64,000 nucleotides of DNA from Alphaproteobacteria bacterium (GTDB lineage Bacteria; Pseudomonadota; Alphaproteobacteria; Rhizobiales; Rhizobiaceae). Under the pieces are notes generated by a model. It was given only the letters and a program-made list of their open reading frames with translations, was not told the DNA's origin and searched no databases. This document shows, piece after piece, positions 9,125 through 61,380 of this stretch. The stretch is from positions 68,245 through 132,244 of the forward strand of contig JAHJHT010000010.1 in NCBI GenBank assembly GCA_018823835.1. The letters are read 5' to 3'. Each line of letters opens with the position of its first letter. The stretch's first letter is position 1. Both the position numbers and the translations under genes were made by a program.

Positions 9125-9328
9125 TTGACACTCCTCCTAAGGCACATTTCCGGGCGCGTCTGCCGCAAGGTAAGGCGCAAGCATGCCGTGGCGTGACCCT
9201 CAATCTCCCCATTTAGCCCAGCAAATGCAAGACTTGGAGCCCCCGATGCACGTTTCCCGGGCCTTGCAGGCGGGCCCGTACGCGGCGGCGACTTGTCAGA
9301 ATTGTGTTTCCGTGCGATAAAATCCGTG

Positions 9329-9351
9329 TTCGGGCATTTGCTGACCCGGAG
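9329..9351 (+). promoter_or_regulatory. conserved block at the probable 5' end of the csp leader (copy 1)
   Basis: TTCGGGCATTTGCTGACCCGGAG lies 185 nt upstream of the csp ATG. A near-identical block lies 187 nt upstream of the second csp. It is preceded by TTGTCA-N17-GATAAA. Confidence 0.35.
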
Positions 9352-9513
9352 ATCTGGAACGTTTTGATCGACCCTTTCCCCGATGCCGTGAATCTCTGAC
9401 AGCCCTGCCATGGCGGGGGGCAATATCATGCCGCCAGAAACCACCGGACCTTCACGCCGCAGCGAAACGGCGAAAAGGACACCAGACTCGCAACGGGTGA
9501 AGGAGTTCTCCCA

Positions 9514-9726
9514 ATGGCCCAGACCGGCACTGTAAAGTTCTTCAACGCGACAAAAGGCTTCGGCTTCATCACGCCTGATGGCGGCGACAAGGACGTCTTC
9601 GTCCACATCTCGGCGATCGAGGCATCCGGCCTGCGTACGCTGGTCGACGGCCAGAAGGTCACCTTCGACGTCGAGCCCGACCGCATGGGCAAGGGACCGA
9701 AAGCGGTCAACCTGCGCGCCGAATAG
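9514..9726 (+). CDS. cspA: cold-shock protein (CspA family)
   Basis: 70 aa with RNP motifs KGFGFI and VFVHIS. Good SD (GAAGGAG). Confidence 0.95.
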
Positions 9727-9773
9727 TCGCTATTCTCCGCTCCCGGGAGCGGCACATCCACAGTCGAAAAAAA

Positions 9774-9805
9774 GGCATGGCCGCCCTGTCCGCCATGCCT
9801 TTTTT
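9774..9805 (+). terminator. rho-independent terminator after csp
   Basis: GGCATGGC-(10 nt loop)-GCCATGCC followed by TTTTTT. Confidence 0.65.
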
Positions 9806-9905
9806 CATGCTCTATCCACAGCGAACCTGACGTTAGGTAATTTGAATGGGAAAGCCGTTTCTTTCGTGCCATGTATTCCTTGAAAAGGACGGGCGGGAGA
9901 ATCGG

Positions 9906-10340
9906 ATGAAAGCGATCAGGATCTTGGGGGCCGCAATGCTTGCATTGGGCCTGACGACAACCGGTCAGGCGGGGTCGATGCAGGTAGGGCCCATGCCGGC
10001 GGTCGGAGGCAACAGTCTCGTCATCAAGGTGGCCGAGGATTGCCATCGCGACGCGAGGCGCCATTTCCTGCCGGAATTCGGCCGGAGAATCTGGCATCGC
10101 CACCGCGGTTCCCGATGCCGGGTGGTGCGGGTGGAACGGCCGGATGAGGACGATTTCGACGGTGGACGCCGCGACTGCCACCGCGACGTGCGCAGCCACT
10201 ACCTGCCGGAATATGGCGGCCGTGTCACCCACAAGCATGTCGGCGGCAGTTGCCGTGTCAGAGTATATCGCCAGTATGACGGCGGTGGTTCGGGGCGCAA
10301 CTGCATCCAGATCGGCGTCGTTCGGCTCTGCGAAGAATAA
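9906..10340 (+). CDS. secreted protein with two tandem Cys/His modules
   Basis: Trimmed to the ATG at 9906 (signal peptide MKAIRILGAAMLALGLTTTGQAGS). Modules are DCHRDARRHFLPEFGRRIWHRHRGSRCRVVRV and DCHRDVRSHYLPEYGGRVTHKHVGGSCRVRVY. Confidence 0.6.
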   Translation: MKAIRILGAAMLALGLTTTGQAGSMQVGPMPAVGGNSLVIKVAEDCHRDARRHFLPEFGRRIWHRHRGSRCRVVRVERPDEDDFDGGRRDCHRDVRSHYLPEYGGRVTHKHVGGSCRVRVYRQYDGGGSGRNCIQIGVVRLCEE

Positions 10341-15170: not shown

Positions 15171-16592
15171 ATGGCCACAACCGAACTGGAGGCACCCGGG
15201 CCGCAAACTGGCAGCGGCATTTCCGCACGCATCCGCCGCGCGGCGGCGGCCTTCTCGGCCGGCTGGACCCGTTTCTGGCGGCTCGTGGCGATCTACATGC
15301 CGAAGCGGCTCTATGCCCGCTCGCTGCTTATCGTCATCACCCCCATGATCCTGCTCCAGTCCGTGGTGACGCTGGTCTTCATGGAACGCCACTGGCAGAC
15401 CGTGACGCAGCGGCTCTCGACTGCCACCACGCGCGACATCGCCGCGATCATCGAGATGATCGAGACCTTTCCCAACGATGACGACTACGCGAGGGTCATC
15501 CGCATCGCCCAGGACCGCCTGTCGATGAAGATCGACATCCTGCCGCCCGATCCCTTGCCGCCGCCCGGCAGGAAGCCGTTCTTCTCGATTCTCGACCAGA
15601 TCCTGTCGGCCGAGATCACCCGCCAGATCAACCGGCCGTTCTGGATCGAGACGGTCGGCAATTCCGGCGTGCTGGAGGTCCGTATCCAGCTCGAGGACAA
15701 GGTGCTGCGGGTCTTCGTGCGGCGCAGCCAGGCATACGCGTCGAATACCCACATCTTCCTGATCTGGATGGGCGGCACCTCGCTGGTCCTTTTGACCATC
15801 GCCATCCCCTTCCTGCGCAACCAGATTAGGCCGATCCTGAAGCTCGCCGAAGCCGCCGAGAGTTTCGGCAAGGGCCGGCCCATGCCGCCCGATTTCCGGC
15901 CGCGGGGCGCCGAGGAGGTGCGGCGGGCGGGCTTTGCCTTCATCCAGATGCGCGAGCGCATCGAGCGCCAGATCGAGCAGCGCACGGCGATGCTGACCGG
16001 CGTCAGCCACGATCTGCGCACCATCCTGACGCGCTTCAAGCTGCAGCTCGCCCTGAGCGGCTCGAAAGTCGACACCGAGGCGCTCGACCATGACATCGAC
16101 GACATGCAGTCTATGCTGGAAGGCTACCTCGCCTTTGCCCGGGGCGAGGCCGCCGAGGATGCCGGCAGGTTCGACCTCGCCGGCTATTTCGAAAAGCTCG
16201 CCGAGGAGGCCCGCCTGCGCAAGCGCAAGCTGACCACGGCACTCTCCGGCGACCCCGAAATCCACGTTCGCCCCAACGCCTTCGAGCGGCTGCTCGCCAA
16301 TGTCGCCGGCAATGCGATGCGCTACGCCAAGACGATCCGCGTGGAGGCGGTGCACGCGCGCGGTTCGCTCACCGTCACCGTCGACGACGACGGGCCGGGC
16401 ATTCCGGCAGAGAGCCGCGAGGACGTCTTCAAGCCCTTCGTCCGGCTCGATCAGGCGCGCAATCTCGACACCAGCGGCACGGGTCTCGGTCTGGCGATCG
16501 CGCGCGACATTGCGCTCAGTCATGGCGGCGAGATCCGCCTCGACGACAGCCCGCTGGGCGGCCTGCGCGTCGTCATCCGCGTGCCGGCCTAG
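15171..16592 (+). CDS. EnvZ-like sensor histidine kinase
   Basis: H-box GVSHDLRTILT, N-box NVAGNAMRYA, G-boxes DDDGPGIP and GTGLGLAIA. It has two hydrophobic segments with a HAMP-like linker. The GTG at 15105 is an alternative start. Confidence 0.85.
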   Translation: MATTELEAPGPQTGSGISARIRRAAAAFSAGWTRFWRLVAIYMPKRLYARSLLIVITPMILLQSVVTLVFMERHWQTVTQRLSTATTRDIAAIIEMIETFPNDDDYARVIRIAQDRLSMKIDILPPDPLPPPGRKPFFSILDQILSAEITRQINRPFWIETVGNSGVLEVRIQLEDKVLRVFVRRSQAYASNTHIFLIWMGGTSLVLLTIAIPFLRNQIRPILKLAEAAESFGKGRPMPPDFRPRGAEEVRRAGFAFIQMRERIERQIEQRTAMLTGVSHDLRTILTRFKLQLALSGSKVDTEALDHDIDDMQSMLEGYLAFARGEAAEDAGRFDLAGYFEKLAEEARLRKRKLTTALSGDPEIHVRPNAFERLLANVAGNAMRYAKTIRVEAVHARGSLTVTVDDDGPGIPAESREDVFKPFVRLDQARNLDTSGTGLGLAIARDIALSHGGEIRLDDSPLGGLRVVIRVPA

Positions 16593-16669
16593 GCATCGCG
16601 CCAGGCGGCGTGACCTTGCGCCCGGCCGGATTCATCCGCCTGTCATGAAAGGATGTTGAAAAGCGCCAC

Positions 16670-17752
16670 ATGAATGTGGCGCGAATCGACCCCGTGGCAG
16701 CAGAGCCGGCAGCGTCTGACGGCGGCCCGCCGAAGCGCATCTTGATGGTCACCGACGCCTGGCGGCCGCAGGTCAACGGCGTCGTCCACACGCTGGAGCG
16801 CCTGACCGAGAACCTCGCCGAATTTGGCGTCGAGGTCGAGTTCCTGACCCCGAACCGCTTCCGCACCCTGCCGATGCCGACCTATCCCGATATCCGCCTT
16901 GCGCTGACGACACCGCGCCGGGTCCGGCGGATGATCGCCGAAAGCGGGGCCGACCATATCCACATCGTCACCGAGGGCCCGCTCGGCTGGATGGCGCGAC
17001 GCTACTGCCTCAACCGCCGCGAGCCCTTCACGACCAGCTATCACACCCGCTTTCCGGAATACGTCACCGCGCGCCTGCCCGTGCCGGAGGACTGGACCTA
17101 TCGCTGGCTGCGCTCCTTCCACAACTCAGGCCAGGGGACGATGGTGGCGACGCAGTCGCTCGCCGACGATCTCGCCGCGCGCGGCTTCGACAAGCTGCGG
17201 CCGTGGACCCGGGGCGTCGACATTGCTCACTTCCGGCCCGATAGGAAGACGGAGCTCGACTTTCCGAGGCCGGTCTTCCTGTGCGTCGGCCGCGTTGCGG
17301 TCGAGAAGAACCTGCCGGCCTTCCTCGATCTAGACCTGCCCGGCAGCAAGGTCATCGTCGGCGAGGGGCCGGAACTGGCCAGGCTGCAGGCGAAATATCC
17401 CGAGGCGCATTTCCTCGGTCACAGGCCGAATGACGAACTGGCCGAGATCTACGCCTCGTGCGACGTCTTCGTGTTTCCAAGCCGCACCGACACATTCGGC
17501 AATGTCATCGTCGAGTCGCTGGCCAGTGGAACGCCAGTCGCCGGCTATCCGGTCACCGGCCCGATCGACATTGTCGGCGACGGCGTCGGCGGCGTGGTGG
17601 ACGAGGATCTGGGAAAGGCCGCACGCGCAGCGCTCGACGTCAGCCGCGACGCGGCACGCGAACGCGCGCTTCGCTACACCTGGAAGGCCTGCACGGAAAT
17701 GTTCCTGGAAAACATCCGCGCCGCGCGGACATCGGCAGGAGCGACGGCTTGA
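16670..17752 (+). CDS. glycosyltransferase family 4 (GT-B, GT1/GT4 type)
   Basis: 360 aa: N-terminal ILMVTDAWRPQVNGVVHT and the C-terminal retaining GT-B motif (FVFPSRTDTFGNVIVESLASGTPV). Confidence 0.85.
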   Translation: MNVARIDPVAAEPAASDGGPPKRILMVTDAWRPQVNGVVHTLERLTENLAEFGVEVEFLTPNRFRTLPMPTYPDIRLALTTPRRVRRMIAESGADHIHIVTEGPLGWMARRYCLNRREPFTTSYHTRFPEYVTARLPVPEDWTYRWLRSFHNSGQGTMVATQSLADDLAARGFDKLRPWTRGVDIAHFRPDRKTELDFPRPVFLCVGRVAVEKNLPAFLDLDLPGSKVIVGEGPELARLQAKYPEAHFLGHRPNDELAEIYASCDVFVFPSRTDTFGNVIVESLASGTPVAGYPVTGPIDIVGDGVGGVVDEDLGKAARAALDVSRDAARERALRYTWKACTEMFLENIRAARTSAGATA

Positions 17753-49752: not shown

Positions 49753-50610
49753 TCAAGGCAGTCTGTAGGTGGAGCCTGCAGGCAGGGCCCGGTTCAGGAT
49801 TGCCTCGACGTATCTGACTTCGGATGCTTTCAGATGCTCCCGCAGGGCAGTCTGGGTCCCGATTTCCTGGATGATGGATTCCGCCCAAAATCTCGCGGCC
49901 TCCAACTCCCCTTCATCGATCAGTCGTTCGACACGTTGCGTCGCCTGCAGTTCTGCCTTGTCGAGTTCTCGGAACATGCCGCCGAAATATCCGGGGTTGC
50001 GGACCGATCCTTCGAAGTCCGGGCAGGCCGCCTGTGCATCACGCACATAGGCTTCCGCAATCTTGTCTCGCGCCAGGAAGGCCGCGCCGTCTCTCAGCGT
50101 CTGTATGTGCAACTGATATGCGGCATCAAACCAACCGCTTAGGGCCTGTCTGGCTTCGGGCCAGCACGCGCCCTTTGCTGCAAGATGACCAAGATATGCC
50201 TTCCGGCAGAAGAAGTATCGTTCGAACATGCCTTCCGCGGTTTCCGGCGGCCGCTTGCAGATGGCATCGACTTGATCGGATTTGGCCAATGGCAGCGCCG
50301 ACATCACAACCTGGAATTTGCACCGCTTGGAACACTGGAAAAGGTTGATTGCGAGACCGAATTCCTTGTGGTCGCTGATGGACACTCTCGCAGGAACCCG
50401 CGGAATATCGGCGGGTCGCAGGGAGTCGAGGTCAACTTCCTGCAGGCCGTTCCCGAGTCGCCCTTCCGTTAGCACCTCCAGCCCCCACTCGATGGAAAAG
50501 TTCTTGTCGGCCAATTCGTCATGGAAGCGAAAGGTGACAGAGGTTGCCCAGCCTTGGACAGGCCACAGAAGGAGGCAGCAGGACAGGACGATTAGCTCTC
50601 GGCGCATCAT
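49753..50610 (-). CDS. hypothetical secreted protein (Cys-containing), lower-GC islet
   Basis: 285 aa with signal peptide MMRRELIVLSCCLLLWPVQGWA. GGAGG SD and an ATGA overlap with the upstream gene stop. No recognisable domain. Confidence 0.6.
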   Translation of the reverse strand: MMRRELIVLSCCLLLWPVQGWATSVTFRFHDELADKNFSIEWGLEVLTEGRLGNGLQEVDLDSLRPADIPRVPARVSISDHKEFGLAINLFQCSKRCKFQVVMSALPLAKSDQVDAICKRPPETAEGMFERYFFCRKAYLGHLAAKGACWPEARQALSGWFDAAYQLHIQTLRDGAAFLARDKIAEAYVRDAQAACPDFEGSVRNPGYFGGMFRELDKAELQATQRVERLIDEGELEAARFWAESIIQEIGTQTALREHLKASEVRYVEAILNRALPAGSTYRLP

Positions 50611-51101
50611 CCAACCTCCGGAGTTCCAGGCCCACTCGGCCGCGCGTGCCCCGCACGCGCCGCCTGGGTGTCGAGTCCCAGTTTTGCCAGGAACAGGAGG
50701 CTGAGCATGCTCGTCATGGAAAGGATCGACTTGCTGATGTCGCCATACTCCGTGACATAAGGCTTGTACGCCGCCAGTCCCCCGAGGATTCCCGGGTCAA
50801 TTGCTGCGAAGGCGAGGAAGCCGCAGATGATCCCACAACCCATGACTGCAAGGATCAGGTAGCCGCCGAGACTGACGAGGTCGTCGGACCGGAAGACGAT
50901 CACGGCCCCGACTATCGGCAGCAGAAGGGTGTGTACCGAATTCGCAACGTCGGTGTCGGTCATGCCAACTGCAATCTTCATCCATCCTGCCCCGGGAGCC
51001 GCCCCGAACAGGATGCCCAGCGTGATCGCGAAGATGGGCCAACAGAAGAACAATAGGAAAACTAGCGCAAAAGCCGATACCAAATAGTCTCGACGAAGCA
51101 T
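50607..51101 (-). CDS. hypothetical integral membrane protein, lower-GC islet
   Basis: Trimmed to the ATG at 51101, after GGGGAGG. The 164-aa protein has about 5 hydrophobic segments. It is translationally coupled to 49753-50610. Confidence 0.55.
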   Translation of the reverse strand: MLRRDYLVSAFALVFLLFFCWPIFAITLGILFGAAPGAGWMKIAVGMTDTDVANSVHTLLLPIVGAVIVFRSDDLVSLGGYLILAVMGCGIICGFLAFAAIDPGILGGLAAYKPYVTEYGDISKSILSMTSMLSLLFLAKLGLDTQAARAGHARPSGPGTPEVG

Positions 51102-51200
51102 CGACACCTCCCCACGTATCCGTGGAGAGAGTGGCACAAAGTTTGCGGCAATTCAATTGTCGGTTGCGACGTCATATTTATGCAACCTGAAAGTGAACTC

Positions 51201-52337
51201 CTACCGGTCGAGCACCGAGCGCAGTTCGACGAGATTTGCGCGCGCTCCCAGAACATAAAAGCCCATTGTCGCCAGATGCGCGGGCATGATCCAGCCCGAT
51301 TCATTTCCGTTCGAAATGATGAAAGGCATGATGTTGAGGGCGGCGCGCAGGCGTTCCTCGCTGCGATTCCACAACGGCGTCAGGCCGCGCGTCGCAATCA
51401 CTTCCTGGAAGTCCGCGCGCGAGGCATGGATGATGCCGTAATAGGCGTAGAGCTGGCCGTAGGCGAACCAGAAGCGGTCGTCGGCCCGCGTGTCGAACCA
51501 GCCGGAATTGTATTCCTCGGAACGGATCCTGAGCATGTCGGAGGTCGAGCCGATGTCGCTGGCGATACGATCGAGGAATGTGACCAGATTGTCGGCGCGC
51601 GCGTCGAAAGTGGCGTTGCAGGCCTCCAGCCGCTGGTTGAAGGCGCGCAGATTGCCGATGGCCGAGCGATAGAAGCTGGGCGTCGGCGTCTTCGGGCCGA
51701 ACGGGCTGATGCCGAAATACCAGGTCTCTTCGTCGAAGGTGACGGCACCGCGCGCATCCTGCAGGTCCTGGTCGATCTGCGATGTGCCGCGCACGCGGCC
51801 GAGCGTGTCGACCAATTCGATGGCGGTGCGCCGGATCGCCTGGTTGACGCCGAGCTGGAAGGCCGCCTTGTTGTCGAAGAAGGGCGTGTGGCGCCACGGC
51901 ACGCCGAAGAAGCCCGCCTTGGAGAGGATCATCGACGGCACCCAGGCATTCTGGTTGACGTTGAAGTCGATCAGGTCCGCGGTGACGTCTGTGATGGCCG
52001 AGCGCGTGCAGGTCTTGCCTGCGCCGGCCGTGGCGGCCGCGCCGGCGACCGGGGGAGCTTCCTCTCCGGCCGAGGTCGCGCGGCCGGAGAGGTCGTAGGC
52101 AACGACATAGTCCGGGTTGAAATTGGTCCAGCGCTGGGTGACCCAGAAGAAGTAGGCATAGAGGCCGACCAGTACCACAAGGGCAAGACCGAGGATCGAC
52201 TTGAGAATCCAGCCGCGCTGCGTGTACCAGCGCCCGGCCCACAGGAATGGCCACAGGATGATACCCACGACGAAGCCGATGCCGCGTCCGATCCACTGGA
52301 AAATCCGGGTGAAGAAGTTCACGATCGGATCAAGCAT
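51201..52337 (-). CDS. membrane-anchored protein, DUF2333-like (gene 5 of AAA+ operon)
   Basis: Track ORF 51201-52826 trimmed to the ATG at 52337, 11 nt after the upstream stop. It has two N-terminal hydrophobic helices (GIGFVVGIILWPFLWA; ILGLALVVLVGLYAYFFW) and then a ~300-aa Trp/Phe/Arg-rich domain. The DUF2333 assignment is from memory only. Confidence 0.7.
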   Translation of the reverse strand: MLDPIVNFFTRIFQWIGRGIGFVVGIILWPFLWAGRWYTQRGWILKSILGLALVVLVGLYAYFFWVTQRWTNFNPDYVVAYDLSGRATSAGEEAPPVAGAAATAGAGKTCTRSAITDVTADLIDFNVNQNAWVPSMILSKAGFFGVPWRHTPFFDNKAAFQLGVNQAIRRTAIELVDTLGRVRGTSQIDQDLQDARGAVTFDEETWYFGISPFGPKTPTPSFYRSAIGNLRAFNQRLEACNATFDARADNLVTFLDRIASDIGSTSDMLRIRSEEYNSGWFDTRADDRFWFAYGQLYAYYGIIHASRADFQEVIATRGLTPLWNRSEERLRAALNIMPFIISNGNESGWIMPAHLATMGFYVLGARANLVELRSVLDR

Positions 52338-52348
52338 TCTGTCACCCC

Positions 52349-53650
52349 CTAGTCGACTAGCCCGTAGAGACGCGCGCGAAGACCCGCCTTGTCCTTGAGA
52401 TATGTACTTTTCAGCGTGTCCACAACATGGCGCCGCCAGGGCTCCGGAAAGCCCTTGTAGTCCGCGTAGAAGCCCTGCTTGTTGAAGATATAGCGCGAGA
52501 CGAAGTCGCTCGGCACGAAATCGGAAATCAGCCGGTTGGTCAGCCAGGCGTCCGGATGGTCCGGCCTCGCGCGCACCACGAGGAAGCGATGCTGCGGAAA
52601 CACCTCGTCGATCTTCAGCTGCCCGAGCTGCGCGATCTCGCGCTTCGCGGCATTCAGAAACGGAAAGATGCCGTCCTTGTTGATCAGTTCGGCATGGTTG
52701 AGAATCCAGGCCTGCAGCCAGACCTTGTCGACCTCGGTCAGGTCGCGCTTGGGCTCGGTCCTGCCGATCAGCGAACGGATCGCCATTTCGGCGCGGTGCT
52801 CGAGATAGTTCGAGGTCTCGATCCACGATCCGCGCGGCAGCTCGATGCGCCCTGTCGACGCGAGAAAGCCGAACACCCGGTCGGCGTCATGGATCGACAG
52901 ATAGCTCACCTGCCATGGCCGCGACCGCCGAAAGCCCGGCGCCGCCGGGTCGCTGATCACCGTCGTCATGTCGGGGTCGACGAAGACGTACACCCCGCCG
53001 AAATGGCTCGTCCAGAAAGCGTTGTGCCGGAAGATCACCTGATCGGGGACCAGGGCATTCTCGCGGATGTCGCCGCAGACCTTGGCCAGTTCCACCATGC
53101 GGTTGAGCATCGCGTCGTCGCGCCAGGCGTCCGGCTCCTGCTCCAGCCTGTCGGTCAGCTTGCCGAGTTCGGCGGCCTTTCCCAGCACATCTTCCGCCGA
53201 CAGCACGCGAAACTCGACCTGGTTGATCGACAGCAGGTCCTCGATATCTTCGACCCGCGCGACCGAATCCTCGATCTCGCCGTAGATGACATCCTTGATC
53301 GTCAGCGCATTGATGGCGCGCGCGTTCTTCACGAAGAACTCGTAGACCAGTTGCGAGGTGTTGGAGAATGCCGTGTGCACCACCGGCAGGTCGGCCTGCG
53401 CCGGCGTCAGGATGATGAAGCGGCGGTTGATTTCGTAAGGGTCGAGATACAGGAGATCTCCGAGTTCCTCAGCGATCTGCGGCGAGAACCCGGTACGATC
53501 GATCTCGAAGCTCTCGAGCTTCGTCGGCTGCAGCCCGAACGCCACCATCGCCTTGTTGTAGCGTTCGATCAGATGCGGCTGGTCGACCGTCAGCAGCCGG
53601 CCGTAGATCAGTTCGTTGTCGCGCAGCAGGTCCATGATTGGCTCAGCCAT
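52349..53650 (-). CDS. hypothetical protein (gene 4 of AAA+ operon)
   Basis: 433-aa ORF with protein-like composition and no motif I can name. It lies 35 nt after the AAA+ gene stop and 11 nt before the next start. Confidence 0.7.
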   Translation of the reverse strand: MAEPIMDLLRDNELIYGRLLTVDQPHLIERYNKAMVAFGLQPTKLESFEIDRTGFSPQIAEELGDLLYLDPYEINRRFIILTPAQADLPVVHTAFSNTSQLVYEFFVKNARAINALTIKDVIYGEIEDSVARVEDIEDLLSINQVEFRVLSAEDVLGKAAELGKLTDRLEQEPDAWRDDAMLNRMVELAKVCGDIRENALVPDQVIFRHNAFWTSHFGGVYVFVDPDMTTVISDPAAPGFRRSRPWQVSYLSIHDADRVFGFLASTGRIELPRGSWIETSNYLEHRAEMAIRSLIGRTEPKRDLTEVDKVWLQAWILNHAELINKDGIFPFLNAAKREIAQLGQLKIDEVFPQHRFLVVRARPDHPDAWLTNRLISDFVPSDFVSRYIFNKQGFYADYKGFPEPWRRHVVDTLKSTYLKDKAGLRARLYGLVD

Positions 53651-53685
53651 CCTGCCATATGCGCCGGCAAGGGATCAGGGCAGCG

Positions 53686-55596
53686 TCACGCATTCCACTG
53701 CCCCTTGGCCTTCATCGTTTCCATCTCGCGGACGGCGCGTTCACGCAGCCGCGCGTCGCGCAGAAGGTTGGAGACCGCCACGTCGTCGGAACGGTCCGAG
53801 TAGCGGAATTCCGAATCCGCATAGCGGTTGATCTCCTGCATCACCATGGACATGGAGAACGGGCCGCGCAGTTCCTCGATCATCGCCTTCTTGTCGTCGT
53901 AGCCCTTGTGCATGAAGGTTTCGGGCTTCTCGAACCACTCGTCGGGAAGCTCGATGTCCATGGCGCGCATCTTGATCGCATCGGTGACGTTCTTGATCGC
54001 GCGGCCGGTGAAGCGCGGTTCGGCCTCCTTGATCAGGTGCAGGTAGGCGCCGATGTCCGACATCGTCTTGGGCTCGCCGAATTCGTCGAGATAGCGGTCA
54101 TAGACCTTCTTCAGCCCCTCTTCCTGCGGCTTGGAGTGTTCCTCGTAGGCAGCCGTGACAGCCTTCTGGATGACCTGCGCCTCGAAAAGTTCATGGTCGC
54201 CGAGCGGGATCTTGTGATTCTTGCCGGCGAGCAGCACGAAGATGTCGATGTAGTCGTCGCGCGTCTGCGGACCGTCGACCAGCCATCTGGCGCCGGCGCG
54301 CTGGCGCAGTGCGTCGTCGACGTTTTCAGGGTAGTTCGAGAACATGCCGAAGGAACAGTTGCCGCGCACCACGGTGGTGGCGCCGGCAAAGCTTTCCATC
54401 AGCACGCCGGTTACTTCCTGCTGGCCGGCCGAGGCGCGGTCGTCCGAGCGCTTGGCGGCGACCTGGTCTATGTCATCGATCGTGCCGAAGCCGATGGCGC
54501 GCGGATTGATGACGTTGGTGACGAACTGCTTGCAGTTCTGGCCCGACTTGCCCTGGTAGGACGAGATCTGGTCAACGCCGAAATTCTCGTAGTGGAACGG
54601 GTAGCCTGCGACCTGACAGTAGTCGTTGATCAGCCCGGCGAGCATCTGGATCAGGATCGTTTTGCCGGTGCCCGGTGCGCCATCGCCGATGAAGGTGAAG
54701 AGAAAGCCGCCGAGCTCCACGAACGGGTTCAGCTGGCGGTCGAAATCATGTGCCATCAGCATCTTGGCAAGCTTCATCGCCTGGTACTTGGCAATGTGGT
54801 TGCCGATGATCTCGTTCGGCTTCTTGAAGGTCATCACCAGCTTGGTGCGCTTCTGGCCGGGCGCGACGTCGAAGCCGTCGAGCGTGAAATCGTCGGACTC
54901 GATGCGGATATGCGCATTCTCGAAGGTGCCGAGCCCGTCAAAGCGGCTCTTGCGCGAGAGCAGTCCCTCGATCGCCGTCCGTGCGAAGCTCTTTGCCCGG
55001 ACCGAAAGATCGGCGTCGCTCTTGGCGCCTGCAAGGGCACCGTCCAGCCCGGCAATCAGCGACTTCAGCGCGTCCTGCGGCGTGTCGAACAGGAAGTCGG
55101 GCTCCTCGATGTCGTTCGGCGCCTCGCCATCCGCCTCGATGAGCTGCAGCAGGTAGGATGCGAAGCTGAAGGCCGATATGTAGGCCGACGCCGACAGAAG
55201 CTTCTTGAAAACCGAGGCATCCTCGCCTTCGAGCGGTGCGCGCGCATTGCGCGCCTGAAGGCTTTCCAGGTCGGAGCCTTCCGCAAAGACCGCGGCGACG
55301 GCCAGCGCGATCGAGATGCCGCGCCGCGCCCGGTAGAGCAGCGTATGCTGCGGGATCGACATCAGCTGGTCGTCGGGCCGGATGGCCGCGACCGTCTTGC
55401 CGAGTTCGACCTCGCGGGTACGGCGCACCGAGCCGGTCGAAACCGTCGACACGAAACGGCGGCCGGTGCCGGCGATTTCGGTGCCCGACCGTCCGGAAGA
55501 ATCCTCCAGCACGACAATGCGCGTGATCATCGACTGCGCGGTCGCCCGGTGCTTCTCGATGTCGGCTTCGGAAATCGTGGTCAGGCCGGTGTCCAT
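53686..55596 (-). CDS. classic-clade AAA+ ATPase with ~300-aa uncharacterised N-terminal region (gene 3 of operon)
   Basis: Walker A GDGAPGTGKT (54658-54687), Walker B-like IGFGTIDDID, and sensor-1/SRH-like FSNYPENVDDALRQRAGARW. The ATG at 55596 follows GAGGAAA. The alternative TTG at 55650 would overlap the upstream stop by 4 nt. Confidence 0.85.
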   Translation of the reverse strand: MDTGLTTISEADIEKHRATAQSMITRIVVLEDSSGRSGTEIAGTGRRFVSTVSTGSVRRTREVELGKTVAAIRPDDQLMSIPQHTLLYRARRGISIALAVAAVFAEGSDLESLQARNARAPLEGEDASVFKKLLSASAYISAFSFASYLLQLIEADGEAPNDIEEPDFLFDTPQDALKSLIAGLDGALAGAKSDADLSVRAKSFARTAIEGLLSRKSRFDGLGTFENAHIRIESDDFTLDGFDVAPGQKRTKLVMTFKKPNEIIGNHIAKYQAMKLAKMLMAHDFDRQLNPFVELGGFLFTFIGDGAPGTGKTILIQMLAGLINDYCQVAGYPFHYENFGVDQISSYQGKSGQNCKQFVTNVINPRAIGFGTIDDIDQVAAKRSDDRASAGQQEVTGVLMESFAGATTVVRGNCSFGMFSNYPENVDDALRQRAGARWLVDGPQTRDDYIDIFVLLAGKNHKIPLGDHELFEAQVIQKAVTAAYEEHSKPQEEGLKKVYDRYLDEFGEPKTMSDIGAYLHLIKEAEPRFTGRAIKNVTDAIKMRAMDIELPDEWFEKPETFMHKGYDDKKAMIEELRGPFSMSMVMQEINRYADSEFRYSDRSDDVAVSNLLRDARLRERAVREMETMKAKGQWNA

Positions 55597-55646
55597 GTGA
55601 GTTTCCTCAGATTGCTCCGTCGCGCGGCACGAAATGCGCCGGGTGC

Positions 55647-56792
55647 TCAAACATCGCTGATCACCTGCCCGTTCGACAGGATGTGAACCTTGTAGTCCGC
55701 AAAAATCTTCTGCGCCTCGCCCACCGCGTAGAGCGCCTGGTAGGCCTCGTGCGGTATCAGCGCATGCTTCTCGTAGCTCGATACCCCCTGGCGCGCGGCT
55801 TCCAGGTCATCCGTGTTGATGAAGAATTCCTCGCTCGCCTGCTCGCTCGAGAACAGCCCCTTGCGGCCCGGCTTCTCGGCCTTGGAGAATACCTCCTGAA
55901 TGGTCCAGGTCAGCAGCCAGGCGCTCTCGGGTTTGCGTACTTTCGACAACACCTCGGTGACCGTCGAATTGTTTTCCGTGATGCCGGCCGAATAGAACGG
56001 CCCGAGCACGATGCGGCGCACCTGCTTGGGATGCAGCTCGGCAAAATCCTTGTCGAGATTGACCGCGATGGTCGCAGGCGACAGCGTGTAGGCCGAGTTC
56101 TTCTCGGTGAAATCGTCGAAGCGGTGGGCGAGTTCCGGGTTGAGCAGCCCGTCGACCGGCAGCGGTATTTCGACCTTCTCGTTCATCTTGCCGCTGTCGG
56201 TGACCAGCTGGCGCACCATCGCTTCGGAGGAATCCTCCACCGTCGCCATGTAGATCAGCGGGAGGTTGGCGCTGCCATCGAAACTTGCCCAATGGACGAG
56301 ATAGAAGGGCCGCCTGGTTTTCGGATTGACCGAGACCTTTGCGGTCTGGGCCAGCGTCATCGGCCCGAAGGCGAGCTCGGCGCTTACGTCCTCGAGATAG
56401 AGCCGCTCGGCCATTGACCGTCGCAACGCGGTCGGGAATTCCTTGTGGCGCAGGATGAAATCGACCATCTCGCCGCGCAATTCGTCGGCCTTGGGAATCT
56501 TGGCGAGACGCTCCGGTGCCGTGCGCCGGTCGTTCTCGAGCTCGAGCAGGTTCTGGAAGACCGGAAACCCGCTCTCTGCGCGTGAGATCCGGAAACTGTC
56601 CATGAAGCCCAGCCGGTTGCGCCAGCAGGTGAAGGAGATTTCCAGCCGCGCGATGTATTCGGCGACGATCTTCGCCACGATGCCGTGCCGGTAGAGCGGC
56701 GAACGGTCGTCGCGCATGAAGATCTCGAGTCCCCGCAGGGCCGCGGAGATCGCCTCGAAATAGCGGGCGGCGGCGTCATTCTCGGGTGTCAT
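55647..56792 (-). CDS. hypothetical protein (gene 2 of AAA+ operon)
   Basis: 381-aa ORF starting 30 nt after the gene 1 stop. It has no TM segment, no signal peptide and no recognisable motif. Confidence 0.7.
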   Translation of the reverse strand: MTPENDAAARYFEAISAALRGLEIFMRDDRSPLYRHGIVAKIVAEYIARLEISFTCWRNRLGFMDSFRISRAESGFPVFQNLLELENDRRTAPERLAKIPKADELRGEMVDFILRHKEFPTALRRSMAERLYLEDVSAELAFGPMTLAQTAKVSVNPKTRRPFYLVHWASFDGSANLPLIYMATVEDSSEAMVRQLVTDSGKMNEKVEIPLPVDGLLNPELAHRFDDFTEKNSAYTLSPATIAVNLDKDFAELHPKQVRRIVLGPFYSAGITENNSTVTEVLSKVRKPESAWLLTWTIQEVFSKAEKPGRKGLFSSEQASEEFFINTDDLEAARQGVSSYEKHALIPHEAYQALYAVGEAQKIFADYKVHILSNGQVISDV

Positions 56793-56822
56793 TCAGATCG
56801 ATCCGGCCCAGGCTTCGAGGCC

Positions 56823-57911
56823 TCAGGGCTGCACGTAGTTCGAGGCATTGTGCTTGCGCATCACCTCGTCGAAGCGGCGGGCGAAGGCATCGTCGGCCAG
56901 CTTTTTGCGGCGCTGGATATCGGCGGTGGCCACCATGTTCTTCTCGTGCAGTTCGAGCAGGTCGCCGATGTGCTTCTGCGAGGCCGCGCCGATGCCTGCC
57001 ATGGTTTCTTCGGCGGTGTTGTCCACCTTGCTGCCCAGCGTGTTGATCTTGTGCGCGACGTCCTGCTGCGCGGCGGTCTTCAGCGAGTCTTCCAAAGCCT
57101 TGTACAGCACGATGCGCTGCTCGGTATCGATCGTCAGCTTGTTGATCAGCGTGTTCTGCGCGGCGATCTGGTTGTTCAGCGAATCCACGAAGGTCTGGAA
57201 CATCGAGGTGTAGCGCTCGAGGGTCTGGCTCTCGGCCAGCAGCTCCTGTTCCTTGGCCTGCTTTTCGTTGTATTCGGTCGCCAGCTTGGAGCGTTCGCTC
57301 TCGAGGTCGGCGCGGTCCTTCTGGCTGGTCGAGGCGGCGATGCGGTTCTCCACGTCGAGCAGCATCGGGTTCAGCTCCTCGATCCGCTTCTGCACGGCTT
57401 CCAGCTTTGCCATCGTCGTCTTGCGCCGCTCGATCACCTGCGACAGGCTGGTTTCGGAGGTCTTGTAGCGCTGGTCGAGCACTTCCTTCTGCGCCTTCAA
57501 TATGCCGACGATCGTGTCCGACTTCGCCAGCAGTTCCTGCAGGTTGCCGGCCAGCGACATGTTGCGCACCCGCTCGGTGCGCATGCGCTGCTTCGATTCC
57601 GCCGAGAAGATGCCGATGAAGGTCTCCCAGCCGGTGAAGCTCTTCATGTTCTCGAACTCGGCGCCGAACACGTTGGTAGCATCCTCAAGCCCGATGATCA
57701 GGTCGGCAATGTTGCCTTCCATCACCTTCTGCTGCTTCAGCACGTCCTCGATGCGGGCATTCTCGATGTCGAAGTCGACAGAGCCGATTTTCTCGTCGGA
57801 CTTGGCGAACTGCTCCAGAACGATACCGGACTTGTCGATCTTGGAGCGCATCTCCTCGACGACCTTCTTGGTCTTGGCAATTTCGGCGTCGAAGTTCTGC
57901 AATGTCGCCAT
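56823..57911 (-). CDS. long coiled-coil protein (gene 1 of AAA+ operon), TelA/PspA-like in architecture only
   Basis: 362 aa, preceded by GGGGAGAG SD. It is Lys/Glu/Gln/Leu-rich with heptad-like stretches, no Cys, no TM segment, and one hydrophobic patch (FTGWETFIGIF). Confidence 0.75.
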   Translation of the reverse strand: MATLQNFDAEIAKTKKVVEEMRSKIDKSGIVLEQFAKSDEKIGSVDFDIENARIEDVLKQQKVMEGNIADLIIGLEDATNVFGAEFENMKSFTGWETFIGIFSAESKQRMRTERVRNMSLAGNLQELLAKSDTIVGILKAQKEVLDQRYKTSETSLSQVIERRKTTMAKLEAVQKRIEELNPMLLDVENRIAASTSQKDRADLESERSKLATEYNEKQAKEQELLAESQTLERYTSMFQTFVDSLNNQIAAQNTLINKLTIDTEQRIVLYKALEDSLKTAAQQDVAHKINTLGSKVDNTAEETMAGIGAASQKHIGDLLELHEKNMVATADIQRRKKLADDAFARRFDEVMRKHNASNYVQP

Positions 57912-58188
57912 CTTGGCTCTCCCCGGCTTCTTTGGTGAGCGGAATATATGGGCGGGGCGGAGCGATTGAAAGCCAAGAACCGAGCCGCAGGGTCGAAAAC
58001 CGGAATGCCTTCGGACCTGGAGGCCGGCAGTCCGGGACAGGCCTTTGTCGCTATGCGGTCAGGCTGTGCCGCAAAGCGACCCGTCGTAACGCTTGAAACA
58101 GCGGGAAAATGATGTTTGGCTTGCGCGATCCGGCCGGACGGCGAACACAGGACCGCCAGGCCAGAAGAATTTCAATGGGAGAATCCAC

Positions 58189-59124
58189 ATGTCGCGTATG
58201 AACTCACTAGCCGCGGGCCTCGGCCTTGCGGCCTTTCTATCGTCGGGCGTGGCTTTCGCTGCCGACCCGGAAAGCTGCAAGGAAGTCCGGCTCTCGGACG
58301 TCGGCTGGACCGACATTCAGGCGACCACCGGTGTCGCCTCGGTCCTGCTCGAAGCTCTCGGCTACGAGCCGGACGTCAAGGTCCTGTCCGTGCCGGTCAC
58401 CTATGCATCGCTGAAGAACAACGACCTCGACGTCTTCCTCGGCAACTGGATGCCGTCGATGACGGCGGACATCAAGGAATACACTGACGAGGGCTCGGTC
58501 GAGACCATCAGCCAGAACCTCGAGGGCGCCGGCTACGGCATCGTTGTTCCGACCTATGTTGCTGAGGGCGGCGTCAAGAGCCTGAAGGACATCGGCAAGT
58601 TCAAGGACAAGTTCAACGGCAAGATGTACGGCATCGAGGCCGGCAATGACGGCAACCGCATCATGCTCGACATGATCGCCGACCCGGAGAACGGGCTGGA
58701 TGGCTTCGACCTCGTCGAATCCTCGGAAGCCGGCATGCTCACGCAGGCCGAGCAGTCGATGAAGAACAACGAGTGGATCGCCTTCCTCGGCTGGACCCCG
58801 CATCCGATCATGGGCGAGATGAAGATCACCTATCTCGACGGCATGGGCGATTCGGGCTTCGGCGCCGCCACCGTCCACACCAACGTGCGCAAGGGCTATC
58901 TCGAGGAATGCCCGAACGCCGGCAAGTTCATCGGCAATCTGAAGTTCACCCTGTCGATGGAAAACGAGATGATGGACGAGATCCTCAAGGGCGGCGACGC
59001 CAACACTGTCGCCACAGCCTGGCTGAAGGCCAACCCCGACGCCATCACGCCCTGGCTTGAAGGCGTCACCACCTTCGATGGCGGCGATGCATCGGCTGCC
59101 GTCAAGTCGGCGCTCGGCATGTAG
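58189..59124 (+). CDS. proX: glycine betaine/proline betaine ABC transporter substrate-binding protein
   Basis: Trimmed to the ATG at 58189, after GGGAGA. It has a signal peptide, and VRLSDVGWTDIQATTGV...FLGNWMPS is typical of ProX/OpuAC. Confidence 0.88.
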   Translation: MSRMNSLAAGLGLAAFLSSGVAFAADPESCKEVRLSDVGWTDIQATTGVASVLLEALGYEPDVKVLSVPVTYASLKNNDLDVFLGNWMPSMTADIKEYTDEGSVETISQNLEGAGYGIVVPTYVAEGGVKSLKDIGKFKDKFNGKMYGIEAGNDGNRIMLDMIADPENGLDGFDLVESSEAGMLTQAEQSMKNNEWIAFLGWTPHPIMGEMKITYLDGMGDSGFGAATVHTNVRKGYLEECPNAGKFIGNLKFTLSMENEMMDEILKGGDANTVATAWLKANPDAITPWLEGVTTFDGGDASAAVKSALGM

Positions 59125-59344
59125 GGCAACCAGCCCGGAGACGGGAATGATCAGGGCAGCCGGGAGATGTTCCGGCTGCCCTTTCCGTTTAGCCATGCAA
59201 TGATAAGCTAATGGACGTCGTCCCAAAAATGGTAGGGGCTTTGGGCTAGCGACGTGAAAGAGCACGAGTTGGGCCGCGTCGCATGAATTCGTTTCGTAGC
59301 GACGCGCTTTAGCGTGCATGGGGCAATCCGCGCGAGGGGGCGAT

Positions 59345-60199
59345 ATGGATCCGGTTTCTGAATTTCTGGTCGATTACAAGATTCCGATTGGCGCCTGGGG
59401 CAAGGACTTCTTCGAGTTCCTGACCGACAATTTCAACACCATCTTCCGCGCCTTTTCCAACGGCCTGAACTTCCTGCTCGAAGGCATGGTGGACATCCTC
59501 CTGATGATGCCGCCGGTCGTGCTCGCACTGGTCATTGCCGGCATCGCCTACCTGCTTCAACGGTCGAAGCCCCTGGCGCTCGGCGTCTTTCTGGGTCTGG
59601 CCTTCATCATCAATCAGGACCTCTGGAAGCAGACCGTCGAAACGCTGGTGCTGGTCGTCGCCGCCGCCGCCATGTCGATGGCCATCGGTGTGCCCATGGG
59701 CATCTGGGCCGCGCACAAGCCGAAGGTCTACCGCGTGCTGCTGCCGGTCCTCGACCTGATGCAGACCCTGCCGACCTTCGTCTACCTGATCCCGGTGCTT
59801 ACCCTGTTCGGCCTCGGCAACGCGCCGGGCCTGATCGTCACCATCATCTTCGTCATCCCGACCTCGGTCCGGCTCACCCATCTCGGCGTCACTTCGGTGC
59901 CGACCGCCATCATCGAAGCCGGCGAAGCCTTCGGCGCCACCAAGCGGCAATTGCTGTGGAAGGTGGAACTCCCCTCTGCCCTGCCCACCATCATGGCGGG
60001 CCTCACCCAGTCGATCATGCTGTCGCTCTCGATGGTGGTCTTTGCCGCCCTCATCGGCGCCGGCGGCCTCGGCACCGAGATCAATCGCGCACTGGGTTCG
60101 CGCAAGATCGACCTCGGTCTTGAGGCGGGGCTTGCCATCGTCATTCTGGCGATCATTCTCGACCGGGCTACCCGGATCGGTGTCGGAGGCAAGAAATGA
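59345..60199 (+). CDS. proW: glycine betaine/proline ABC transporter permease
   Basis: Trimmed to the ATG at 59345, after GAGGGGG. It has the EAA-type loop (IEAGEAFGATKRQLLWKVELP) and a 4-nt overlap with proV. Confidence 0.88.
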   Translation: MDPVSEFLVDYKIPIGAWGKDFFEFLTDNFNTIFRAFSNGLNFLLEGMVDILLMMPPVVLALVIAGIAYLLQRSKPLALGVFLGLAFIINQDLWKQTVETLVLVVAAAAMSMAIGVPMGIWAAHKPKVYRVLLPVLDLMQTLPTFVYLIPVLTLFGLGNAPGLIVTIIFVIPTSVRLTHLGVTSVPTAIIEAGEAFGATKRQLLWKVELPSALPTIMAGLTQSIMLSLSMVVFAALIGAGGLGTEINRALGSRKIDLGLEAGLAIVILAIILDRATRIGVGGKK

Positions 60200-61380
60200 G
60201 CGTCGCGGTCGAATTCAAGAACGTCGACATCATGTTCGGCGACGACACGACCAAGGCGGTCGCCATGCTCGACAGGGGCGCGGACCGCGCCGAAATCCTG
60301 GAGGCTACCGGTAATGTGCTTGGCTGTGCCGGCGCCAACCTGACCGTTCAGGAGGGCGAGATTTCGGTCCTGATGGGCCTGTCCGGCTCCGGCAAATCGA
60401 CCCTGCTGCGTGCTGTCAACGGCCTCAACAAGGTCACCCGCGGCGAGGTCATTGTGCATGACGGCGACTGGGCGGCCGATGTTGCCTCCTGCTCTGCCCA
60501 GGAGTTGCGCAAGATCCGCCGCGAATGCGTCGCCATGGTGTTCCAGCAGTTCGGTCTGCTGCCCTGGCGCACGGTCGAGGAAAATGTCGGCTTCGGCCTT
60601 GAACTTGCCGGCGTGCCGGAAAAGGAACGCAAGGAGCGCGTCGCCAAGCAGCTCGAACTCGTGCATCTCGACCAGTGGGCCAAGAAATACGCCCACGAAC
60701 TGTCGGGCGGCATGCAGCAGCGTGTCGGCCTCGCGCGTGCCTTCGCCACCGAGGCGCCGATCCTTCTCATGGACGAGCCCTTCTCGGCGCTCGACCCGCT
60801 GATCCGCACCAAGCTGCAGGACGAATTGCTGCAGCTGCAGGACGAACTGAAAAAGACCATCATCTTCGTCAGCCACGATCTCGAGGAGGCGCTGAAGATC
60901 GGCACCACCATCACCATCATGGAAGGCGGCCGCATCGTGCAGAGCGGCACGCCCGAAGACATCGTGCTGCAGCCGGCCAATGATTACGTGCGCGACTTCA
61001 TCGCCAATGTGAATCCGCTCTCGGTGCTCACCGCCTGGAACGTCATGCGCGACAAGCGCGACCTCGAAAGCGCCGGCGAAGGCGGCTGGCTGTGGCTCGA
61101 CCGACGTGAAACGACACGCTTCAAGATCGATGAGAAGGGCCTGGTCGTCGCCGCCGAACGCAACGGCCAGCCGGCAATCTGGGTGTCCTGCGATCCGATA
61201 GAAAAACTGCCGGAGGATTCGCACGAGGTCTACTGGGCCAATCCCGGCACCTCGCTCAAGGCCGTCATGCTTGCGATGCACCGCTCGCAGACCGCGCCCG
61301 TGGCGCTGTTCGACGAAGCCTCCCGCTTCATGGGCTCCATCGGCGTCCGGGACGTACTGTCGGCGGTTCTGCGGAGGTAG
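60196..61380 (+). CDS. proV: glycine betaine/L-proline ABC transporter ATP-binding protein
   Basis: Walker A GLSGSGKST, signature LSGGMQQR, Walker B LLMDEPFSALD, and a C-terminal CBS-like region. Confidence 0.93.
   Translation: MSVAVEFKNVDIMFGDDTTKAVAMLDRGADRAEILEATGNVLGCAGANLTVQEGEISVLMGLSGSGKSTLLRAVNGLNKVTRGEVIVHDGDWAADVASCSAQELRKIRRECVAMVFQQFGLLPWRTVEENVGFGLELAGVPEKERKERVAKQLELVHLDQWAKKYAHELSGGMQQRVGLARAFATEAPILLMDEPFSALDPLIRTKLQDELLQLQDELKKTIIFVSHDLEEALKIGTTITIMEGGRIVQSGTPEDIVLQPANDYVRDFIANVNPLSVLTAWNVMRDKRDLESAGEGGWLWLDRRETTRFKIDEKGLVVAAERNGQPAIWVSCDPIEKLPEDSHEVYWANPGTSLKAVMLAMHRSQTAPVALFDEASRFMGSIGVRDVLSAVLRR

Follow-up and report, generated by a model that had tools for sequence, protein, structure and literature searches.

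A conserved bacterial gene module with a divergent AAA ATPase and a possible role at the inner membrane

Here, we describe a five-gene module in a 64,000-nucleotide stretch of an alphaproteobacterial genome of the Rhizobiaceae (assembly GCA_018823835.1, contig JAHJHT010000010.1, positions 68,245 to 132,244; the whole stretch is hereafter the window). The genes, referred to as g1 to g5 in their order on the minus strand, code for a helical-bundle protein, a protein outside any family, a divergent AAA ATPase, a DUF6638 protein and a membrane-anchored DUF2333 protein. They form one conserved, vertically inherited ancestral chromosomal module and not an island. Across bacterial orders, g1, g2, the AAA gene and the DUF6638 gene are the constant core, which encodes four soluble proteins, while the membrane partner is lineage-specific. 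Judged by how it evolves with and without the other genes, g1 is the hub of the module, and it has enzyme-level conservation only where g2, the ATPase and DUF6638 are present. We suggest that the module could support an AAA-driven cycle in which a g1 scaffold is assembled and taken apart at the inner membrane, a proposal that we hold tentatively and with somewhat less than even confidence.

The five genes lie in the window as follows; the identity to the window protein in related Rhizobiales loci is given last on each line.

g1, 56823-57911, minus strand: 362 amino acids (aa), from the open reading frame (ORF) listing; 83-91% identity
g2, 55647-56792, minus strand: 381 aa, from the ORF listing; 65-87% identity
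g3, 53686-55596, minus strand: 636 aa from an ATG, with an alternative TTG at 55650 that would give 654 aa; 66-85% identity
g4, 52349-53650, minus strand: 433 aa, or 428 aa if Met6 is the start; 62-85% identity
g5, 51201-52337, minus strand: 378 aa, from the ORF listing; 50-73% identity

Distribution and constant core of the module

A species-level scan with one genome per species recovered a relative in at least 590 genomes; details were taken from the closest 80 loci, and more distant contexts from about a dozen individual look-ups (L-numbers denote individual loci). The closest 80 genomes belong to Mesorhizobium, Aminobacter, Nitratireductor, Aquamicrobium, Ensifer and Sinorhizobium, and the order g1 to g5 is kept in 70/70 Rhizobiales loci with enough downstream DNA. 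Because full-length homologues that are 50-91% identical occur in the same order in 70-80 species-level genomes, all five ORFs are, on this comparison, real genes. The flanks are shared as well: formate-tetrahydrofolate ligase (FTHFS) is encoded next to the module in 56/80 relatives, ChoW in 72/80 and ChoV in 70/80, Sinorhizobium included. Among 2.9 million viral contigs there was a single edge match, and the matches in plasmid collections are all chromids, megaplasmids or chromosome-sized records, all of them non-mobilizable. The original prediction of a host-like chromosomal module rather than a recent island is borne out by the ChoWV and FTHFS flanks in 56-72 of the 80 relatives and by the GC content of the operon stretch, which is 0.60-0.63 compared with 0.60-0.68 over the whole window. 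The strict co-conservation of all five genes that had also been proposed is confined to Phyllobacteriaceae and Sinorhizobium; between orders, only four of the genes stay the same, and another gene takes the place of the fifth.

This exchange of the fifth gene is evident in the more distant loci. A marine clade, whose g1 shares about 42% identity with the window protein, consists of Rhodobacterales (Loktanella, Yoonia, Cognatiyoonia, Tabrizicola and Marinovum), and its loci read g1-g2-AAA-(114-aa ORF with multiple transmembrane (TM) segments)-DUF6638-DUF1523. DUF1523 is present in 30/30 Rhodobacterales loci that were long enough to score, and 27 loci of the clade have the small TM ORF; most of the 30, L089 among them, read g1-g2-AAA-DUF6638-DUF1523. 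In Thalassospira xiamenensis (L168) and in a genome of 43% GC (L175), the order is g1-g2-AAA-small TM ORF-DUF1523-Dynamin_N-DUF6638. The core g1-g2-AAA-DUF6638 was found on an 882-kb megaplasmid of Vibrio parahaemolyticus, on a chromid of Rhizobium leguminosarum and in L174, L181 and L183 (metagenomic or genomic), and L172 and L182 read g1-g2-AAA up to the contig end. From Rhizobiales to Vibrio, the core order is kept at 25-50% identity and with entirely different flanks. In the Vibrio-type loci L178 (pVP-19-VB00998) and L183, the core is flanked on one side by an RNase H family gene and on the other by mfd, the gene for the transcription-repair coupling factor, in a second copy that is plasmid-borne, a context wholly unlike the alphaproteobacterial ones.

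The evolution of g1 depends on the company that it keeps. In the same genomes, g1 is 83-91% identical to the window protein, compared with 81-93% for FTHFS and 64-85% for ChoV; g1 is thus as conserved as a central metabolic enzyme. In R. leguminosarum and two metagenomic relatives, the syntenic slot (choXWV-thymidine kinase-...-FTHFS) contains a g1-like gene followed by DUF2333 only, and g2, the AAA gene and the DUF6638 gene are missing at each of the three truncated-type loci whose context could be read (L170, L177 and L179), of which the last is located as follows.

L179, R. leguminosarum pSK03, 8001-10208: reduced locus with a g1-like gene and DUF2333

At these AAA-less loci, g5 retains 60-62% identity to its counterpart in the window, whereas the g1-like protein is only about 25-40% identical, and the truncated-type g1 proteins are 17-50% identical to one another. 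Residues about 286-300 and the sequence SLKTAxQQxxAHxIN are lost from them, and a second motif, at the tip of the modelled bundle, is degenerate or deleted. In the window protein, the two elements are located as follows.

g1 tip motif, residues 91-120, 57552-57641, minus strand: T..E.F.G.FS..K...MR..R, flanked by the long helices of the model
g1 C-terminal module, residues 271-315, 56967-57101, minus strand: includes SLKTAxQQxxAHxIN, from the family alignment

The tip motif is kept in 39 canonical members and degenerate or deleted in 18 truncated-type members, and the C-terminal module occurs in all canonical members and is missing from the truncated type. Because the constraint on g1 and the two motifs are lost where g2, the ATPase and DUF6638 are lost, we infer that these three proteins impose them and that the motifs are most likely the interfaces of g1 with g2, the ATPase or DUF6638. 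That g1 is conserved as strongly as a central metabolic enzyme, but only in the company of the ATPase module, speaks for an obligatory machine of several proteins. In turn, the occurrence of g1 and DUF2333 alone in Rhizobium shows that these two are a sub-module able to stand by itself. One R. leguminosarum strain also has a full g1-g2-AAA-DUF6638 cluster (L180), which lies on a 1.3-Mb replicon and is not accompanied by DUF2333.

The ATPase and its partner proteins

g3 consists of a single AAA domain with its own N-terminal region (~300 aa) and a C-terminal region (~190 aa). Its only Pfam match is PF00004 (E 3e-10, 41 bits against a 21.2-bit cutoff). The AAA core and the Walker B residues map as follows.

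g3 AAA core (Pfam match), 54289-54681, minus strand: residues about 306-436 of 636
g3 Walker B Asp-Asp, codons 374-375, 54472-54477, minus strand: reads GTIDDID

Motifs were assigned by alignment only, using 11 sequences from five clades. Invariant across these are the Walker A motif GxPGTGKT, Tyr347 and Gly349 in the pore loop SYQG, the sensor-1 Asn421 together with Arg433 and Arg437 in a segment resembling the second region of homology (SRH; FSNYPE...DDALRQRAGAR), and the lid motif RFTGRAIKN; the C-terminal sequence QEINRYADSEFRY is conserved across the five clades. The Walker A motif, the Walker B variant and the SRH-like segment that had been read from the DNA are accordingly all present and, with Walker A, the pore-loop Tyr, sensor 1 and the SRH arginines invariant, the alignments depict a competent-looking motor.

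The profile matches of g3 in the Protein Data Bank (PDB) are led by Rpt4, Afg2, VAT, Yme1 and Rpt2 (E 1e-6 to 1e-3), and the solved relatives also include PAN, Cdc48 and, marginally, katanin (E about 6e-4), which agrees with the predicted placement in the classic AAA clade. With this clade (Rpt/PAN, Cdc48/VAT/Afg2, FtsH/Yme1, katanin and NSF), g3 shares the PF00004 core, Walker A, the aromatic pore loop, sensor 1, the SRH arginines and a lid motif of the GxSGADI type. However, the similarity is very weak (best profile E about 1e-6), the N- and C-terminal regions around the single AAA domain are unique, and the module has no protease, proteasome or SNARE-like partner. The N-terminal 300 aa have no Pfam match at E ≤ 10, MIT and Vps4_C domains were not detected in g3, and Vps4 is not among the 51 solved relatives listed (profile E ≤ 0.001). 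In PADLOC, the AAA core matches TRIP13 weakly and in a generic manner (E 9e-5). By these comparisons, g3 is a classic-clade protein, though a very divergent one, and shows no particular closeness to Vps4; the suggestion of a Vps4-like ATPase is not upheld.

g1 is soluble, Cys-free and all-helical, as had been proposed; hydropathy (maximum 0.91 over 19 residues, no hydrophobic segment) and the structural model agree on this. The protein has no match in Pfam, NCBIfam or PADLOC. A relaxed Pfam scan at E ≤ 10, in which the HMMER filters discard many very weak matches, gave coiled-coil noise only, a profile search of the PDB sequences gave generic coiled coils only, and single-sequence searches gave no specific match. 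The AlphaFold2 model, built from 57 diverse homologues (predicted local distance difference test (pLDDT) 84, predicted TM-score (pTM) 0.79), is an elongated bundle with helices at residues 2-37, 47-90, 120-193 (74 residues) and 197-285 (89 residues) and a C-terminal part of lower confidence. A Foldseek search of 350,542 PDB chains with this model returned nothing at E ≤ 1e-3; the top matches, all weak, are alpha-pore-forming toxins of the ClyA family (AhlC, AhlB, SmhB, NheA, Hbl, MakA/E, XaxB and YaxA; E 0.008-0.1, TM-score 0.3-0.5 and up to 0.53 on the target, Foldseek probability 0.9-1.0). g1 has 1754 close relatives in a collection of 5.8 billion proteins, of which the best 120 are 77-95% identical; clustering at 50% identity among 1.84 billion representatives leaves 294 clusters, so that the family is small. 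The source annotations of homologues (P0003 and P0499) range from "phage-related protein" (JGI) to "Centromere protein Scm3" (a Rhodobacteraceae metagenome-assembled genome); we found no support for these names, which seem to have been transferred spuriously because the protein is of the coiled-coil type.

The extreme C-terminus of g1 is a conserved short helix, KxxADxxFxRRF. In ESCRT-III proteins, the MIM1 pattern reads (D/E)xxLxxRLxxL(K/R). A role of the g1 helix as an AAA-specific, MIM-like docking site was rejected, as the AAA-less g1-like protein retains the helix.

The original prediction regarded g2 and g4 as orphans, and this view stands for g2. The protein is soluble, and its AlphaFold2 model (pLDDT 87.5, pTM 0.85) combines an N-terminal helical bundle with a beta-rich alpha/beta domain. 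g2 has no match in Pfam, NCBIfam or PADLOC, gives coiled-coil noise only in the relaxed Pfam scan (E ≤ 10) and, as a profile, has 0 matches among the PDB sequences. With the model, the best Foldseek match in the PDB has E 0.22 and a TM-score ≤ 0.2, which does not identify a neighbour, and a comparison with the viral structures of BFVD gave TM-scores of about 0.1 and no meaningful neighbour either; as modelled, the g2 fold is without a match in the PDB or BFVD. A profile search for diverse relatives returned four proteins. g2 lies directly after g1 in every examined locus that retains the AAA module and is gone from the reduced loci with the g1-like gene and DUF2333.

g4, by contrast with the expectation, is a DUF6638 protein (PF20343, E 2e-70, 238 bits against a 27-bit cutoff, model positions 2-410/439). 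It is soluble, its N-terminal half is the conserved half, and a profile search of the PDB sequences found nothing. The exact g4 sequence of the window had no existing record in a look-up, and the DUF6638 protein of S. meliloti 1021 is UniProt Q92N41. In all clades seen, the AAA gene comes with a DUF6638 gene, and in several relatives the AAA stop codon overlaps the DUF6638 start (minimum gap -11). Taken by their family matches, g4 and g5 are members of catalogued DUF families and not orphans.

g5 matches DUF2333 (PF10095, E 1e-20, 74 bits against a 22-bit cutoff) over model positions 85-199/330 only; its R. leguminosarum orthologue is annotated "DUF2333 family protein", and PDB sequence searches gave no specific match. 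The two N-terminal TM helices that had been recognized from the DNA correspond to hydrophobic segments at residues 16-34 and 41-68 (52134-52292), a weaker and a stronger one, with a short basic loop between them. The peptide in front of them is invariant (MLDPIV.FF.R.F..IGRG.G) and would face the cytoplasm, where it is a candidate docking site. Behind them, a variable Ala/Pro/Thr-rich linker leads to a C-terminal domain with exactly two Cys residues, both invariant, and this domain would probably be periplasmic and contain a disulfide. DUF2333 also occurs outside the module, for example in Pseudomonas fluorescens, where its neighbours are an amidase gene and a NUDIX gene (PMC5256989).

In the DUF1523 proteins, TM segments lie at either end and the C-terminal tail is basic, suggesting a periplasmic domain and cytoplasmic ends. 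Homology between the two kinds of fifth gene, DUF2333 and DUF1523, was considered and rejected, as hhalign shows no relationship. The genes for the membrane-anchored Dynamin_N GTPases between DUF1523 and DUF6638 lie at 15656-17107 of the T. xiamenensis locus L168 and at 14925-16232 of L175 from the 43%-GC genome. The dynamin assignment is above the Pfam cutoff (62 bits), a hydrophobic hairpin is present at the C-terminus, and the two GTPases are 41-44% identical.

A possible membrane-associated machine and its alternatives

Taken together, three findings argue for a dedicated AAA machine in which g1 is the hub and probably the client: the gene order is conserved, g1 evolves in step with the other three core genes, and the motor looks competent. 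Whole-length conservation at the level of an enzyme, in a protein of the coiled-coil type, is what is expected of a subunit with many contacts, as in a polymer or lattice. The recurring inner-membrane partners, together with the dynamin in two deep-branching versions, suggest that the machine acts at the cytoplasmic membrane, and the dynamin genes inside the cluster point to membrane remodelling or repair. In the cycle that we propose, g1 would assemble into a higher-order structure on the cytoplasmic side of the inner membrane, and this assembly would dock to the lineage-specific membrane partner. The AAA hexamer would engage g1 via the motifs specific to canonical g1, g2 and DUF6638 would assist it as adaptors or cofactors, and ATP would be spent on disassembling, recycling or reshaping the g1 assembly. 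The cellular role could be the housekeeping upkeep or the remodelling of the envelope or membrane. A broader claim, that the module represents a previously unrecognised class of membrane-remodelling or repair machine in which a g1 assembly is disassembled by the AAA protein with the novel-fold g2 and DUF6638 and is coupled through DUF2333, DUF1523 or dynamin, goes further, and we consider it doubtful in this full form.

Several points weigh against the proposed cycle. The Walker B motif of g3 is Asp-Asp and not the consensus Asp-Glu of the classic clade in 11/11 sequences of five clades, and Asp375 aligns with the catalytic Glu of Yme1. In AAA enzymes generally, an Asp in place of the catalytic Walker B Glu may slow hydrolysis; g3 may hydrolyse ATP slowly or have a role other than processive unfolding. 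The association with dynamin is seen in two genomes only, and the Vibrio, L174 and L181 versions have no obvious membrane partner beside the core, so that a membrane association may not be universal. Relatives also have insertions of 0.2-3.6 kb between the operon genes; strict co-transcription is therefore not required, and the window has the compact form. Finally, the polymerisation of g1, its binding to the membrane and its contact with the ATPase are read from co-evolution and genomic context.

The module could, alternatively, be a true homologue of the PspA/Vipp1/ESCRT-III and Vps4 systems, in which case g1 would be a divergent polymer of the ESCRT-III superfamily and g3 a Vps4-type disassemblase. 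Like ESCRT-III/Vps4 and PspA/Vipp1 (IM30), the module combines a soluble all-helical protein, here modelled with a long hairpin, with a classic-clade AAA protein and a membrane-related gene context, and the conserved helix at the extreme C-terminus of g1 resembles MIM1. The likeness is one of logic, with the polymer step of g1 being our suggestion. A match of g1 to the PspA, ESCRT-III or TelA folds had been set beforehand as the test of this relationship, and the searches returned none: PspA_IM30 (PF04012) and Snf7 (PF03357) do not match g1 in Pfam at E ≤ 0.01 or E ≤ 10, TelA (PF05816) does not match at E ≤ 10, and no PspA, Vipp1 or CHMP/Snf7 chain is among the top 50 Foldseek matches of the model. 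TelA is also not among the fold-search results, for which the presence of a solved TelA structure in the library was not checked. Neither in sequence, where the g1 profile finds generic coiled coils, nor in fold was a relationship to PspA, Snf7 or Vipp1 found. Moreover, the helices of g1 are far longer than the ESCRT-III hairpin, the MIM-like helix persists in proteins without an AAA partner, g3 has neither a detected MIT nor a Vps4_C domain and is not specifically Vps4-like, and g2 and DUF6638, both obligatory in the module, have no counterpart in the ESCRT-III and PspA systems. We therefore regard homology as highly improbable. Of the membrane link in the original prediction, the PspA/ESCRT-III identity falls, while a connection to the membrane as such is plausible, given the anchored g5 and the small TM protein, DUF1523 and dynamin of the relatives. 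The structural matches of g1, weak as they are, would rather suggest a ClyA-like protein that inserts into membranes and that g3, as a dedicated chaperone or extractor, keeps soluble, delivers or extracts. With the ClyA family (ClyA, Hbl/Nhe, AhlABC, SmhABC, MakA/E and XaxAB/YaxAB), g1 has in common a length of ~350 aa, the helix topology of an elongated 4-5-helix bundle and a small tip subdomain. However, long helical bundles match one another non-specifically, the matches do not reach E ≤ 1e-3, and no ClyA, HBL or related Pfam family matches g1. Because it has no hydrophobic head, g1 is not assigned to this family; it also has no beta-tongue and no signal peptide for export, its context is cytoplasmic with an ATPase-encoding neighbour, and its housekeeping-like conservation is unlike that of toxins. 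This explanation is, in our view, quite unlikely.

Three other explanations were considered. g3 could be a general unfoldase in protein quality control, similar to Cdc48 or PAN, that acts on many clients and for which g1, g2 and g4 are cofactors or adaptors and not substrates. Its nearest solved relatives (proteasomal Rpt/PAN, Afg2, Cdc48/VAT and Yme1), the invariant aromatic pore loop and a promoter-like block of housekeeping type (see below) fit such a role; the lack of a protease or proteasome partner in any cluster examined, the tight co-evolution specific to g1 and the AAA module, the membrane partners and dynamin inside the cluster in several clades and the Asp-Asp Walker B motif do not, and we consider this role unlikely. 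A system centred on a nucleoside triphosphatase for defence against phages, or for another conflict, had been the alternative in the original prediction and is now disfavoured. It could account for the weak match to TRIP13, the only one that the five genes have to the PADLOC defence models, for the presence of the module on Vibrio megaplasmids and a Rhizobium chromid, for its patchy presence across orders and for the toxin-antitoxin and Fic genes that are often inserted in the cluster in relatives. Yet the other four proteins have no PADLOC match and no nuclease, protease, NADase or other effector-like domain is recognisable; the position is fixed, with the module present there in 80/80 retrieved Phyllobacteriaceae and Sinorhizobium loci; g1 is conserved like a central metabolic enzyme, whereas defence genes usually diversify; and the GC content is host-like, with the one edge match among viral contigs. 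We find a defence function very unlikely. That five unrelated genes without a shared function happen to be neighbours would fit the insertions of up to 3.6 kb that relatives tolerate between them and the fifth gene that differs between orders, but it is hardly credible given a core order that is kept from Rhizobiales to Vibrio despite 25-50% identity and different flanks, and given the loss of the g1 motifs in step with the loss of the other three genes.

Searches of Pfam, NCBIfam, PADLOC and the literature found no described system with the gene composition of the module, in line with the earlier statement that no characterised system has this gene order, and full-text literature searches found no functional study of DUF6638, DUF2333, DUF1523 or the module. 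Bacterial dynamin loci (BDLP, DynA, LeoABC and IniAC) resemble the Thalassospira and L175 clusters in having a Dynamin_N GTPase with a hydrophobic hairpin; there is no dynamin gene in the window operon or in the Rhizobiales and Rhodobacterales versions and, to our knowledge, dynamin-like loci have not been described with the partners of this module. Should the module act on the cell membrane, bacteria would have in it a separate, independent answer to the problem that ESCRT-III/Vps4 and PspA solve, and DUF6638, DUF2333 and DUF1523 would gain a functional context. Two of its proteins, g1 and g2, are outside any family, and g2 has a confident model without a solved neighbour. The genomes with a relative, at least 590 at the species level, include the genetically tractable Sinorhizobium meliloti, S. 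fredii NGR234 and the Mesorhizobium loti group, and marine Rhodobacterales and Vibrio megaplasmids also carry the core.

Gene layout, transcription signals and neighbouring genes

The ORF listing confirms the layout read from the DNA, namely five minus-strand ORFs with gaps, from g1 to g5, of 30, 50, 35 and 11 nt; the second gap becomes a 4-nt overlap if g3 starts at the TTG. Orthologue alignments favour the ATG start of g3 (636 aa), and they indicate that the true start of g4 may be Met6 (428 aa), which would leave a 50-nt gap. The predicted lack of a terminator between the genes is consistent with a scan of the minus strand from 50500 to 58300, in which no terminator-like site was found, and Rfam and repeat scans of 49-59 kb were both empty. 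In the window, the five genes are sufficiently compact that they could be one transcript. Upstream of g1, an alignment of 12 upstream regions revealed the following elements.

Promoter-like block upstream of g1, 57944-57972, minus strand: CTTTCAA at 57966-57972 and CATATAT at 57944-57950, from the upstream alignment
Shine-Dalgarno-like GGGGAG, 57919-57924, minus strand: between the promoter-like block and the g1 ATG

The TATA at 57945-57948 is invariant in 12/12 aligned regions, Sinorhizobium included, and the CTTTCAA block is mostly kept in the Mesorhizobium-type regions and divergent in both Sinorhizobium ones. The alphaproteobacterial sigma-70 consensus is CTTGAC-N17-CTATAT. The CTTTCAA...CATATAT block resembles this consensus and is a putative promoter, which makes constitutive expression plausible. 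A scan with an Escherichia coli-type consensus had no match upstream of g1 and missed the block. A general-stress promoter of the EcfG type (GGAAC...CGTT) was also considered, and none is present in the alignment of the 12 regions.

Two extra minus-strand ORFs occupy 49753-51137, between g5 and the FTHFS gene. The first codes for 176 aa with ~4 hydrophobic segments and has a likely ATG at 51100, directly after GGGGAGG; the second codes for a Cys-rich protein of 285 aa with a signal-peptide-like N-terminus. No Pfam or PADLOC match was obtained for either, and both are without a homologue in the 80 related Rhizobiales loci; the two are a window-specific insertion that might be co-transcribed with the operon. 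As no terminator-like site separates them from g5, the transcript could extend further in the window genome.

The insertions inside the cluster in relatives are of several kinds. A Fic-motif ORF (HPFNDGNGRTARL) is present between g2 and g3 in 11 Rhizobiales loci, pairs of antitoxin and PIN genes lie between g3 and g4 in ~8 (PhdYeFM and PIN in L001), and repeat-derived sequence occupies operon gaps in 32 loci. The g3/g4 gap has a median of 530 nt in relatives compared with 35 nt in the window, and loci with insertions include L001, L016-L018, L027, L044, L052, L053, L066 and L069.

On the other side of g1, a divergent ABC transporter is encoded on the plus strand at 58187-61380 (Pfam OpuAC, BPD_transp_1 and ABC_tran with CBS). 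The functional fit with this transporter that had been proposed is not supported, as the neighbours differ in other clades and the link is positional only. In most relatives, the transporter and g1 are separated by a thymidine kinase gene, often joined by one for a small cytochrome c; the window has neither. The name proXWV had been given to the transporter; an ABC transporter is indeed encoded there, and the syntenic R. leguminosarum genes to which it corresponds are annotated choXWV, a choline transporter.

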